Positions 1 through 64,000 are shown, counted from the first letter of the stretch. The stretch: DNA of 64,000 bases from Alphaproteobacteria bacterium (GCA_027483355.1 JAIXUW010000292.1:138308-202307); one strand, 5' to 3'. Numbers and translations: made by a program. Notes: generated by a model from the letters alone, not told the origin.

Positions 1-1562
1 ACCATTTTTGCAAGTTTGGCATCGGCGATTGTGAACGTAAGTAGCGCATTGAATTCTTTGCTTTCCACAGCGGGTACGATGATCTGGTTTCTATAATCCA
101 TGAGCCATTTTGGGTATTCCTTAGAACGAAACGCAGCTGCATTGCTTTCCGTCCACTCAAGCGGGACGATTCCGACTCCGGCCTTGGTGCATTCCAGAGT
201 CGCTCTGCTGACCAAGGCAGCGTTGTCGCGCATGATCAAGAATTTGCGAACGTAAAACTGGTCCACGGCTACTTTTAGAGCATGAGTAAAGTCGTTGGCA
301 AATGCGTTCATGTCTTGAACTGCGGCCGCGGACGTTTTCAACGGAATTCCGTACTCTTGAGCGTCTGACATGAGATAGCTCGTGATGCGGTAGTACATGT
401 CTTTACTTGTGCTAATATCGCCAAGTTCTTCAGGTGAAATGAACACAGAGGGCTCGTAGGGCATGGCCGATTGTGACAATTCGGGCATTAGAGCACGTGT
501 CGTGGCTTTCATTCGAGACGCTGACACAATTCCCATTTCGTCAAACGCAGATCCGAGCATTTGAGAGTAACTAGAAACGTTGTCGGCCCAGGCGTCTGAC
601 GACGCGTCAACGCGGTTTTCACAGTGTTCGGAAGTGACAATTGATGTGACAGCAGCCAAATTAGGCGTTACTTCACGCACCATGCTGTTAAACGCTTGAG
701 AATCCATATAGTGCTCCCACCATTCTTTAAACACGGCGGGATGCTCGATGAGCCTGATTTGAAGTTCGACGTCGAGCGCCACAGATCGCATCTGCTCGAC
801 AAGATCCACGGCCTTATACGGTTGGCCTGAATTAGCCGGGATCATTTGCCAAATGCGCATTTCCCCGTCTTTGGGCTCGAGACTCCAGAACTCTGAGAGC
901 GTGTTGTCCGTTTCGCAAATGTTGAAAAACGTTAACAAACTATCAAATGCCGTGATTTGCAGATTTCTCGTCGCTGCCAAAAACCGAATTTGCGTGTTGT
1001 GATCAGGTGCGTCTTGTGCGCTTACTCGGCCTATCATAGTATCGATCGCGGCGTAGTCGAGTATGTAAGAATGACAAAGTCGTGCCTCAAACTCGTCCAA
1101 ATCCGTTTTCGTAGCTCCGCTCAGATAATTGACTTGACCAAGTGTTCTAATCCATTTTCGCATGTTGTCGTCCAATGGCGTCTTTGAAACGTCTCGATCG
1201 TATCGATTGAACACTGTAGAACTCAACTTGTCTCGATGAAACATTTCAAACTCAGCACGGCGAGGCGCCATGGCGATTTCGGGCACACAGCACTTTTTGT
1301 ACACGGTCACGACGGCGAACATGAGTTCAAAGTAGTTTTTCAAATGACCCATGGCTTTTTCGCTCCATGGCACGTCGCGATGAAAGGCGTCTTCGATCAA
1401 AAGCGCCAGAGCGGCGTGCAGCTTCTCGTAACTCGTAACCGTCCATAATATACCACTCCATGCGTCTTCCGTGAGCGGATATTGTGCAATCTGCTCGTAC
1501 GCTTTGCGTCCAACGGCAGCCGAAACCGTGAACGGGATAACCCGTTTCGCGGCAGCTGCCAT
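1..1562 (-). CDS. hypothetical protein, C-terminal part lies beyond the left window edge (520 codons seen)
   Basis: Absent from the ORF track because it runs off the edge. My manual reverse-complement translation from ATG (CAT at 1560-1562, context cgaaaaagATG) is stop-free to nt 1 (MAAAAKRVIPFTVSAAVGRKAYEQ...FTIADAKLAKM). No domain recognised. Confidence 0.8.
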   Translation of the reverse strand, partial: MAAAAKRVIPFTVSAAVGRKAYEQIAQYPLTEDAWSGILWTVTSYEKLHAALALLIEDAFHRDVPWSEKAMGHLKNYFELMFAVVTVYKKCCVPEIAMAPRRAEFEMFHRDKLSSTVFNRYDRDVSKTPLDDNMRKWIRTLGQVNYLSGATKTDLDEFEARLCHSYILDYAAIDTMIGRVSAQDAPDHNTQIRFLAATRNLQITAFDSLLTFFNICETDNTLSEFWSLEPKDGEMRIWQMIPANSGQPYKAVDLVEQMRSVALDVELQIRLIEHPAVFKEWWEHYMDSQAFNSMVREVTPNLAAVTSIVTSEHCENRVDASSDAWADNVSSYSQMLGSAFDEMGIVSASRMKATTRALMPELSQSAMPYEPSVFISPEELGDISTSKDMYYRITSYLMSDAQEYGIPLKTSAAAVQDMNAFANDFTHALKVAVDQFYVRKFLIMRDNAALVSRATLECTKAGVGIVPLEWTESNAAAFRSKEYPKWLMDYRNQIIVPAVESKEFNALLTFTIADAKLAKM

Positions 1563-1669
1563 CTTTTTCGATCCGAAATTAATGAATTCACGTTTTCTAG
1601 AAACAGTCGAGAAAAAGGACTCGTAGTTTTATTTTCGAATCCTCTTTGACAGCGTTTTTTTTAAGAGTC

Positions 1670-2956
1670 ATGGAGCCAGGCTATCTCCTCGACACAAGTC
1701 TGTTAGAGAACGCAACCCCGTTCGATCAATTGTTGAGCCAGTTTCAGGATTTGGAAATACAATACGCGTTCAAGTCGAGCGAAAATGCCGCAATCGACAA
1801 GCTATTCGACGTGCCTGCCGACATTGAAGCCGAAATGGATCAAAGGAAACGAGTTTCTAAACTGGTCTATTTGGAAAACATTACAGACTTTCAGTTCGAG
1901 GATTTTCTCGAATATCTTTACAAGAAGAAAAACGGCGATCGCAGATTGGTCTCGCTTTCCATGTGGATAAACGCAAGAGGCGCTGTACTTTCACCCGCCG
2001 TGCACAGCTTGGACAAACGGTCTATTGACGCGATTTGTGACCGCGTTGTTAAAACGTACGGCGAGTCTTTCACGGAGCCTCATTTGGAAAGATCCGATCT
2101 GGAGTGGATTGTCAAGCTGGCGCTCCTCGTAGATCTCGGACAAAATGCCACCACACAGTTCAGATCTTCTGGTCTAAGTGAACAAGATAAGAATCCGCAT
2201 ATTCTAGAGACGTTGGAACAAGCGTGTAACTTTTTCACGTACCACATCAAAGGGGCTGCAAAGGCGTTGCACAGAGTTGTGTCAACGTCTGCCGACTACG
2301 CAGAGCCCACCGTCGTGGATATTCATTGCGGCACTCCGTTATTCGCGCTCATAACCGCGTATTTGTTTGACGCGGACGCGAGACTGCTCTGCAGTTCCGT
2401 CAGGAATGAAAGCCGCAACGCTTCAGTTGTCTATTGCATGCTAATATTGACCTTTTTGGATTGCGTAGAACAACTACTGCCACGCATTCCATTGACGCAA
2501 GTCAAAGATTATTCCTTTGTTGAAATGCTAGCAGCGGAACTCGCTACAAATGGCAAACAGCCCTGCAAAGGTGCCACGATGCCCAGTATGATTAATGTTC
2601 TGAAACGAGCGCCGTATTTGATAAGCAGCAAAAAGATTCCGATTATTCCAAACGCGCCGCTTTTCCATCTGCCCACGACGGCCGCTGCGCTGGCGCTTAG
2701 AAATCTTAGTGTCAGAGAGTCGCTCGCACAAAAGGTGCTCATGTGCCCTTTTCCCGATTCGGCGTGCAAGAAATATGTAACTCCAACGTCGGTGGAGAAA
2801 ATTGAGGGCGTTGAAATCATTCGCAGAAAGGGCAACCAAAATATGGAAGAAGTGTTTGTCTGGCACCCAACTGTGAAAAAGTGGGTCACTGGCATTATGA
2901 CCTGTTCAAAAGATTTGTATATCAATGTCGTGTTTGGAGTTTTCCCGAAACAATAG
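1670..2956 (+). CDS. LRR-like paralog family member A (428 aa)
   Basis: Track ORF 1646..2956 begins at TTG; the first ATG is at 1670 (MEPGYLLD). Two colinear motifs are shared with 16071..17330: ENITDFQFEDFLEYL vs ENFTTLRFEYFLEFL, and YVTPTSVEKIEGVEIIRRK vs YVSPGAVPGKISVVEIFRRK. Confidence 0.8.
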   Translation: MEPGYLLDTSLLENATPFDQLLSQFQDLEIQYAFKSSENAAIDKLFDVPADIEAEMDQRKRVSKLVYLENITDFQFEDFLEYLYKKKNGDRRLVSLSMWINARGAVLSPAVHSLDKRSIDAICDRVVKTYGESFTEPHLERSDLEWIVKLALLVDLGQNATTQFRSSGLSEQDKNPHILETLEQACNFFTYHIKGAAKALHRVVSTSADYAEPTVVDIHCGTPLFALITAYLFDADARLLCSSVRNESRNASVVYCMLILTFLDCVEQLLPRIPLTQVKDYSFVEMLAAELATNGKQPCKGATMPSMINVLKRAPYLISSKKIPIIPNAPLFHLPTTAAALALRNLSVRESLAQKVLMCPFPDSACKKYVTPTSVEKIEGVEIIRRKGNQNMEEVFVWHPTVKKWVTGIMTCSKDLYINVVFGVFPKQ

Positions 2957-63387: not shown

Positions 63388-63634
63388 TTTTAGACTCAAC
63401 ACCACTCAAAAAGGTATTTAAACGCTTGCGGAGAACAGTTAAGCCAGACACCTGCGCGGCAACCGCAGATTTATTAACTTCGGGTTTTAAGGCGCGTGGG
63501 TTTTTTCAGGCCAACAAAAATTCTCGGAGGGGTTTAATAAACTTTTTGTTTCTCTTTCCCCGCATACCTCTATTTTTTCCCCTCTTCGTTTTTTTTATAA
63601 CGAATTAGGACTGCTGACTGGCCGAGAAAAAAAA

Positions 63635-64000
63635 ATGTGGGCACAGACGCTGGCAAGCCATGTGGTGCCGAGTCCACTGCTGCAATGTCTCTTCTACGGC
63701 TTCGTGAAGCTGTGCATGGTGGACTTTGTGTACAAAGACTTTGATAACAAAGATGAATACATGCTTGACGTACCTGTGTACATGCTATTGCAGGCACTTC
63801 ACCTGAGCCTGTTTTCTGTGGGATTCTTCTTTTACGATGCCGAAAACGCGGCAGCCATGTTTCTGCTCATAGGTCTATCCAGATGCAGCAAACTGTTATC
63901 TCTTTTCATTCGCTTCAGAAAACATAATAAAGTGCTGCGAATAGAACAACAGTTGATTGATCACGGTCGACTGAATCGCAAACCAAGCCGAACCGAAGCC
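63635..64000 (+). CDS. hypothetical membrane protein, C-terminal part beyond the right window edge (122 codons seen)
   Basis: Absent from the track because it is truncated. gagaaaaaaaaaATG start. My translation (MWAQTLASHVVPSPLLQCLFYGFVKLCMVDF...LHLSLFSVGFFFY..AAMFLLIGL...) is stop-free to nt 64000. Confidence 0.65.
   Translation, partial: MWAQTLASHVVPSPLLQCLFYGFVKLCMVDFVYKDFDNKDEYMLDVPVYMLLQALHLSLFSVGFFFYDAENAAAMFLLIGLSRCSKLLSLFIRFRKHNKVLRIEQQLIDHGRLNRKPSRTEA

Follow-up and report, generated by a model that had tools for sequence, protein, structure and literature searches.

A split herpes-type terminase gene in an ORFan-rich contig points to a mirusvirus-like, nucleus-dependent DNA virus

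We analyzed a stretch of 64,000 nucleotides (the window) of a contig filed under Alphaproteobacteria bacterium (GCA_027483355.1, JAIXUW010000292.1:138308-202307), which is probably part of the genome of a large, nucleus-dependent double-stranded DNA (dsDNA) virus and carries the first exon of a split, herpes-type large terminase gene. The protein database gives the source contig as 292,368 bp, and the window thus represents about one fifth of the genome. Its GC content stays flat at about 0.48 (range, 0.455 to 0.512), with no compositional junction along the 64 kb. Greedy calling of ATG-initiated open reading frames (ORFs) of at least 70 codons yielded 51 ORFs, which lie on both strands and occupy 90.5% of the sequence; as about eight of the short ones are probably spurious, e.g., the ORF at 53864-54139, antisense to a methyltransferase exon, the realistic gene number is 42 to 45. 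This agrees with the initial annotation, made from the sequence alone, which had described a near-gapless, bidirectional array of about 45 genes. The 2-nt spacer and the two ATGA overlaps that it reported are also real: the spacer separates convergent stops at 15016 and 15019, and the overlaps lie at 3568-3571 (minus strand) and 36718-36721. Nor did we find the housekeeping, rRNA, or tRNA genes whose absence it had noted, as shown by Pfam analysis of 39 window products, a tRNA scan of the window, and an Rfam scan in which no family, rRNA included, was matched. Pfam recognized four of the 39 products (SET plus MYND, RabGAP-TBC, RING, and a borderline BTB), and a methyltransferase emerged only after splicing. 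The locus is ORFan-rich, as had been claimed, but the estimate that some 70% of the products lack a recognizable motif was too low, the share without a Pfam domain being about 88%. The features on which the identification of the element turns are as follows.

1-64000, both strands: probable large dsDNA virus genome segment, about 90% coding, GC about 0.48.
35186-36721, plus strand: core ORF of 511 aa with a conserved YVC..G.VH.C..HPF motif, recognized by module conservation.
36718-37821, plus strand: core ORF of 367 aa, recognized by module conservation.
37852-38631, plus strand: exon 1 of a large terminase (TerL) ATPase as predicted from its fold, 260 aa, with the Walker A motif GGRRTGKT at aa 147-154.
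38632-38637, plus strand: conserved 5′ splice site GTACGC, at the end of terminase-family homology.
38864-39880, plus strand: candidate cysteine protease of clan CE (Ulp1/adenain-like), always adjoining terminase exon 1.
53831-54462, minus strand: S-adenosylmethionine (SAM)-dependent methyltransferase gene with a GxGxG motif and one spliceosomal intron (exon 1, 54462-54210; exon 2, 54135-53831).

In a six-frame motif scan, the GGRRTGKT sequence in the ORF called at 37852-38832 was the sole Walker A motif of the window. Herpesvirus terminases carry PRRHGKT, and this resemblance served as a lead, not as a test. A profile search of 1.84 billion representative proteins retrieved 15 terminase-exon proteins of 236 to 473 aa, all of exon-1 length. 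Residues Q101, R149, R150, G152, K153, N177, D200, S250, P252, and V261 are invariant in an alignment of 17 sequences, as is the RRxGK[ST] motif across the family. A first AlphaFold model of the exon, built from three sequences, had a mean confidence score (pLDDT) of only 54.9, and its top matches in the PDB were already large terminases; the AlphaFold2 model built from the 17 sequences reached a pLDDT of 80.6 and a pTM of 0.70.

Foldseek comparison of the exon model with the PDB gave TerL ATPase domains, those of phages P74-26 and T4 (gp17), as 10 of the 15 top matches, with probabilities up to 0.99 and E values of about 0.15, a level to be expected because the query is half a domain. Against the viral structure database BFVD, Herpesvirales terminases or their exon-1 products made up 11 of the 16 top matches (E, 2.9e-4 to 4e-2; probability of at least 0.99, and of 1.0 for those with E values of 2.9e-4 to 1e-2), the others being phage large terminases. 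The best matches were proteins of Ranid herpesvirus 3 (E, 2.9e-4), Ranid herpesvirus 2 (ORF68; E, 3.9e-4), and a callitrichine gammaherpesvirus (E, 8.3e-4); further ones were rat cytomegalovirus R89, a psittacid alphaherpesvirus terminase, Epstein-Barr virus (EBV) BGRF1, herpes simplex virus 1 (HSV-1) UL15-1, sturgeon herpesvirus ORF62, a clam herpesvirus terminase, and ostreid herpesvirus 1 (OsHV-1) ORF109. The best of them are exon-1-only products of similar length, and no packaging ATPase of the FtsK/HerA type was present among the structural matches. The models thus show that 37852-38631 encodes, by predicted fold, the N-terminal ATPase half of a herpes-type large terminase.

The 3′ limit of this exon was found by comparison with its homologs. 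Similarity to the two close homologs stops abruptly after ...NMDGSGGNVRS, and beyond V261 all 17 sequences diverge into unrelated low-complexity text. The V261 codon and the one that follows read GTACGC, GTACGT, GTGCGG, or GTAAGC (GTRMG) in nine loci, among which synonymous positions just upstream vary. As this conserved 5′ splice site is read through by gene callers, the exon corresponds to 37852-38631, and the tail of the called ORF, from there to 38832, is intron read-through. The homology ends in all homologs at a valine codon that is also the conserved donor, showing that the terminase coding sequence ends at a spliceosomal donor just before the expected Walker B motif, and hence that the gene is split there. 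Motif scans revealed no Walker B-like hhhhDE sequence in the window or in about 120 kb of related loci; as the exon for Walker B and the nuclease is absent from both, the second part of the terminase must lie elsewhere in the genome. Splicing of 37852-38832 into the downstream protease ORF (GTACGCC...CAG, 38741/38876) was considered and rejected, since conservation ends 100 nt earlier. In every relative with the exon (P0010-P0023; L007, L009, L011, and L012), the gene call overruns the donor into FFFF or HTHTHT runs. The C termini of this family are therefore systematically wrong in public protein sets.

An intron is well supported in the methyltransferase gene. Removal of 74 nt (54209-54136, minus strand; GTACGC...TTTAG, GT-AG type) restores the reading frame, and the spliced product matches Pfam Methyltransf_24 (E, 6.7e-4) over a segment that spans the junction, whereas exon 1 alone has no match. 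The donor hexamer GTACGC is common to this intron and to the end of the terminase exon, and GTACGC-like words show no overall enrichment in the window. A generic intron scan gave mostly false positives, among which the methyltransferase intron alone was independently backed. We therefore claim one intron and one additional conserved donor; the spliceosomal-type introns of the initial annotation exist, but they are not frequent.

The terminase exon belongs to a four-gene module. The order 35186-36721, 36718-37821, terminase exon, and 38864-39880 is colinear in three relatives at 20 to 44% identity (L005, 7499-12118; L007, 7514-11993; L012, 7298-13637), and it is kept even in the distant L007 and L012 (contigs of 95 and 72 kb), in which identity is 20 to 34%. 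The L012 module contains an additional 225-aa ORF, and its protease homolog has 583 aa. Residues H199, D215, Q273, and C279 of the protease candidate are invariant in four homologs (23 to 38% identity), with a Q-x5-C spacing. Its L007 homolog has a weak match to Peptidase_C48 (E, 0.013), and the window protein itself gave no match in a Pfam scan.

To look for relatives of the element as a whole, we searched the products of the 887-, 1535-, and 326-aa ORFs against 5.8 billion proteins. Apart from the protein itself, on the NCBI contig of 292,368 bp, each search returned only one or two clusters of metagenome or Logan origin, one of which combines a Tara Oceans member with a protein on a 208,454-bp contig of the European Nucleotide Archive. 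None of the three products had a cellular homolog. The relatives are few: syntenic, ORFan-only contigs of 72 to 208 kb from marine, Tara, other metagenome, or Logan samples. Five of the related loci (L001, L002, L003, L005, and L006) have a GC content of about 0.48 and are colinear with the window at 35.2 to 53.8 kb and 61.7 to 64 kb. Identity to the close relatives is 71% for the 1535-aa ORF, 56% for the 326-aa ORF, 51% for the TBC protein, and down to about 25% for others, and protein identity exceeds nucleotide identity over 12 syntenic genes; such graded identity (71% to about 25%) across the block indicates intact genes under unequal purifying selection. Apart from the TBC protein and one acetyltransferase, neighboring genes in the relatives have no Pfam domain. 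The first 35 kb of the window had no match in the 7 kb upstream of the block in a long relative. Scans of IMG/VR with the 1535-aa ORF and the terminase profile detected no relatives, and L004, a Logan contig of a second run, is 100% identical to the window. Close homologs in a single cellular eukaryote lineage, beside housekeeping genes, were thus found neither for the three products nor among the neighbors in the window. The proposal of the initial annotation that this is a large nuclear dsDNA virus or viral element, not ordinary chromosome, is supported by searches that retrieve only the contig itself and syntenic, ORFan-rich marine contigs, and by the spliceosomal signals.

The remainder of the conserved block and the segment that follows it comprise these features.

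45986-48649, plus strand: core ORF of 887 aa, candidate virion protein (portal or capsid), second most conserved of the block.
48664-53271, plus strand: most conserved ORF, 1535 aa, 70 to 74% identity to relatives.
53800-61650, no strand: segment absent from the closest long relative (comparison with L003, 14642-17018).
58140-58450, no strand: cluster of direct and inverted ACGTAACGTAAC / GTTACGTTAC repeats, inside the largest noncoding gap (57913-59319).

The 887-aa ORF is 61% identical to its close relatives and 29% identical to that of the distant L012. The 1535-aa ORF has two C-terminal CxxC...CxxH modules (aa 1349-1382 and 1473-1514), invariant in four homologs, whereas its two acidic linkers of low complexity are not conserved; judged from its sequence, the tail looks like a zinc-binding, DNA- or protein-binding region on a body of some 1,200 aa. 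In the closest long relative, the homolog of 53318-53764 is directly followed by that of 61699-63387. The intervening 8 kb or so of the window, which holds the methyltransferase gene, the ORFs 55288-55857, 55974-57629, and 59320-61623, and a repeat-rich spacer, marks a variable region or insertion hotspot immediately after the conserved block. With at most one mismatch allowed, eight of the nine matches to AACGTAACGT in the window are packed into 290 nt, and the related loci have none; the repeat cluster is a candidate replication origin or enhancer. Around the genes, TATATA, TATAAA, and TGTATA words are more than 10-fold enriched within 80 nt downstream of stop codons, A-runs immediately precede many ATG starts, and the metazoan poly(A) signals AATAAA and ATTAAA are almost absent after the stop codons of the window. 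The expression signals are thus eukaryote-type yet nonmetazoan.

The other genes with recognizable domains are these.

13550-15016, plus strand: BTB/POZ-like protein with a C-terminal KRRKL cluster (Pfam BTB, 6e-4, borderline, just below the cutoff).
15019-15888, minus strand: C3HC4 RING finger protein (Pfam, 1.6e-10).
18833-19405: C2H2 finger, with motif-level support only.
23901-27272, minus strand: SET plus MYND (SMYD-like) protein with long acidic linkers (Pfam SET, 6e-9; MYND, 1.6e-3).
42350-43720, plus strand: RabGAP-TBC domain protein (Pfam, 1.5e-12), also found in relatives.

The SET-MYND, TBC, and RING domains listed in the initial annotation are supported by Pfam, the BTB domain is borderline, and the C2H2 and Ulp1-like assignments hold at the motif level. 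The leucine-rich repeat (LRR) family on that list did not hold up: there was no Pfam LRR match and no paralogy by BLASTP in the window, and pairwise similarity was marginal (E, 0.02 to 0.04). Basic clusters of the K[KR][KRT]K[LTV] type occur in five products, as had been seen for KRRKL-like sequences. Judging by translation, the ORFs 8251-10941 (minus), 33096-35063 (plus), and 40068-41606 (plus) encode candidate envelope or membrane proteins: two are large, Cys-rich products with N-terminal hydrophobic segments resembling signals or anchors, and one, of 512 aa, resembles a multipass membrane protein and is 31% conserved in relatives. An ORF-poor stretch contains a 56-nt inverted repeat (19564-19619 and 19698-19753; 82% complementary, 78-nt spacer), and the small ORF called there at 19562-19882 is probably no gene.

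Viruses with dsDNA genomes package their DNA with a TerL-type terminase or an FtsK/HerA-type ATPase, depending on the realm. The TerL-type gene therefore places the element in Duplodnaviria, in its eukaryotic herpes/mirus branch. This finding shows that the products are not restricted to eukaryote-type regulatory domains, as had been thought, because terminase exon 1 is a virus hallmark, one overlooked when no capsid, polymerase, or primase hallmark could be found. The lineage had been left open between NCLDV-like (nucleocytoplasmic large DNA virus), herpes/mirus-like, and other affiliations; the terminase narrows it to the second. We propose, with a probability of roughly 0.8, that the window derives from a large dsDNA virus that depends on the nucleus and belongs to the HK97-capsid/terminase lineage (Duplodnaviria, herpes/mirus type); the likeliest candidate is a mirusvirus-like virus whose host is a single-celled marine eukaryote. 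This call is based on 64 of the 292 kb of the contig.

Its genome would be free or episomal, or else a recent integrant, with transcripts made and spliced in the host nucleus. Long-range cis- or trans-splicing would complete the terminase mRNA with an exon that lies beyond the window and encodes Walker B and the nuclease, and the assembled terminase would pump the genome into preformed capsids. The block at 35 to 53.8 kb and 61.7 to 64 kb may form a core or virion module in which the 887- and 1535-aa ORFs would encode structural or packaging proteins. The SET-MYND, TBC, RING, BTB, C2H2, and Ulp1-like genes could be host-type genes, acquired by capture, that regulate chromatin, ubiquitin/SUMO, and vesicle traffic, and the other fast-evolving ORFans lineage-specific accessory genes.

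Nuclear mirusviruses have 13 to 14% Pfam-annotated genes, GT-AG introns of about 80 bp, C3HC4 RING genes, and a mean genome size of 265 kb, and their terminases are split near Walker B, an arrangement reported for most mirusviruses outside Demutovirales and Soporavirales (PMC12768974). The window resembles the nucleus-dependent members (the putative orders Okeanovirales and Styxvirales and the "cryptic" orders; PMC12768974) in the marine origin of its relatives, few-hundred-kb genome, share of genes with Pfam domains (about 10 to 14%), C3HC4 RING gene, short GT-AG introns (about 80 nt), and herpes-type terminase split near Walker B. Like them it shows no polymerase or RNA polymerase (RNAP) gene, and neither a primase-like motif of the archaeo-eukaryotic (AEP) type nor a second P-loop motif was found in the window. 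Mirusviruses encode the second part of the terminase far away, and the window likewise lacks it. It differs from them in that no major capsid protein (MCP), portal, triplex, TBP, heliorhodopsin, histone, or Snf7 gene was identified, in its seemingly low intron density (one proven intron in 64 kb), and in the conserved module of 35186-36721, 36718-37821, terminase, and Ulp1-like protease, which is not described there. The mirusvirus episomes of thraustochytrids (Soporavirales; AurliV-1/CE1, 298 kb; Schizochytrium circles of 289 and 275 kb) are of the same class of about 290 to 300 kb, lie inside NCBI eukaryote assemblies, and are ORFan-rich (128 of 177 genes in CE1; bioRxiv 10.1101/2023.06.15.545109). 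They differ by the presence of PolB, RNAP, and topoisomerase genes and an unsplit terminase, Soporavirales terminases not being trans-spliced (PMC12768974); CE1 has a GC content of 45.0% and 298 kb, compared with 48% and 292,368 bp here.

Several observations weigh against this assignment. Neither Pfam, PHROGs, nor PDB sequences yielded a terminase match, even with 17-sequence profiles, and because sequence-only methods made no link the assignment is structural, resting on the fold similarity of a half-domain with modest E values (best, 2.9e-4). The second (nuclease) exon and its acceptor were found neither in the window nor in the fetched loci. Sequence comparison with Pfam, PHROGs, or the PDB linked neither the 887- and 1535-aa ORFs nor the protease candidate of the window to any entry, and no HK97 MCP, portal, triplex, or maturation protease was identified in the window. 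Fifteen clusters among the 1.84 billion representatives and none in IMG/VR are fewer than expected for the abundant described mirusvirus orders; with so small a family, membership in Mirusviricota, as opposed to a sister lineage, is not proven. Finally, tight linkage of a clan CE protease to the terminase is, to our knowledge, no described feature of herpes- or mirusviruses. Adenain/Ulp1-type enzymes are the maturation-protease type of the other virus realm. A more radical proposal, that the window and its approximately 15 relatives form a deep, unclassified eukaryotic branch of Duplodnaviria outside both Herpesvirales and the described mirusvirus orders, whose core pairs a split herpes-type terminase with a clan CE protease, is on balance unlikely, though not far-fetched; if it were true, the pairing would be a hybrid assembly toolkit.

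The same terminase raises the question of whether the virus belongs to Herpesvirales proper, resembling allo- or malacoherpesviruses and infecting a marine animal, instead of being a mirusvirus of a protist. Split terminase genes are classical for allo- and orthoherpesviruses, the best structural matches of the exon come from alloherpesviruses (Ranid herpesviruses 3 and 2), allo- and malacoherpesviruses typically have RING families and many ORFans, and the 292-kb contig equals the cypriniviruses in size. The exon shares with herpesvirus terminases (HSV-1 pUL15, EBV BGRF1/BDRF1, and alloherpesvirus proteins of the ORF62/69/71 type) the ATPase N-terminal fold, the RRxGK[T/S] Walker A motif, an N-terminal helical extension, and an exon boundary just upstream of Walker B, with other genes between the exons. 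However, identity in the structural alignments is 9 to 14%, there is no match to Pfam DNA_pack_N or any other herpesvirus family among the 39 products, and Foldseek E values fail to separate allo-, ortho-, and malacoherpesvirus targets. The other genes are unrelated to herpesvirus core genes at the sequence level, and the host signals are nonmetazoan: AATAAA/ATTAAA is almost absent after stops, and protists are suggested by the 74-nt intron and by the A-rich context of the starts. As the relatives also come from plankton and Tara metagenomes, we regard an animal herpesvirus as improbable.

Much less credible is a nucleus-dependent virus of the NCLDV type, e.g., one resembling the SmDNAV-like "Ariadnavirales/Skiavirales," or another Bamfordvirae giant virus. 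An Ulp1/adenain-type protease would suit the realm of Bamfordvirae, giant viruses commonly have TBC, BTB, RING, and SET genes, and SmDNAV-like viruses are also ORFan-rich and devoid of polymerases (bioRxiv 10.64898/2026.08.29.747986). Yet the only P-loop protein of the window folds as a TerL-type terminase, not as an FtsK/HerA-type A32 ATPase; the 39 products, from 64 of 292 kb, gave no Pfam match to the double jelly-roll (DJR) MCP, A32, VLTF3, D5, or PolB; and the IMG/VR scans, in a collection that holds SmDNAV-like contigs, detected no relatives. Equally remote is the idea of a compact, fast-evolving chromosome region of a cellular eukaryote, or of an endogenous viral element that has decayed and lost virus production. 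In its favor, the contig belongs to a genome record at NCBI and recurs, 100% identical, in data of a second run, the window has introns and domains of the eukaryote type, and the stretch at 53.8 to 61.6 kb, missing from relatives, has small, broken-looking ORFs and repeats. A cellular or decayed origin is countered by the lack of housekeeping, tRNA, and rRNA genes in 64 kb, by long intact ORFs that fill 90% of the window, by the 12-gene synteny with protein identity above nucleotide identity, by the absence of cellular homologs of the three searched products, and by the flat GC content without a junction in the window.

With a mirusvirus-like virus as the most probable identity, an anonymous ORFan island becomes a classifiable virus genome. 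It had been called novel, which is an overstatement: mirusviruses that bear introns, are rich in ORFans and poor in replication genes, and have split terminases were described in 2025 (PMC12768974). The element is a rare addition to a recently described virus group and does not represent a new category. Terminase exon 1 with its GTRMG donor, flanked by the Ulp1-like protease gene, provides a compact marker that finds relatives missed by capsid or polymerase screens and by IMG/VR. The host may be identifiable, as the sequence occurs in a genome record at NCBI as well as in another sequencing run. With the element, the nucleus-dependent herpes/mirus group gains a rare lineage, which bears on the relationship between the herpes-like viruses of protists and the herpesviruses of animals.

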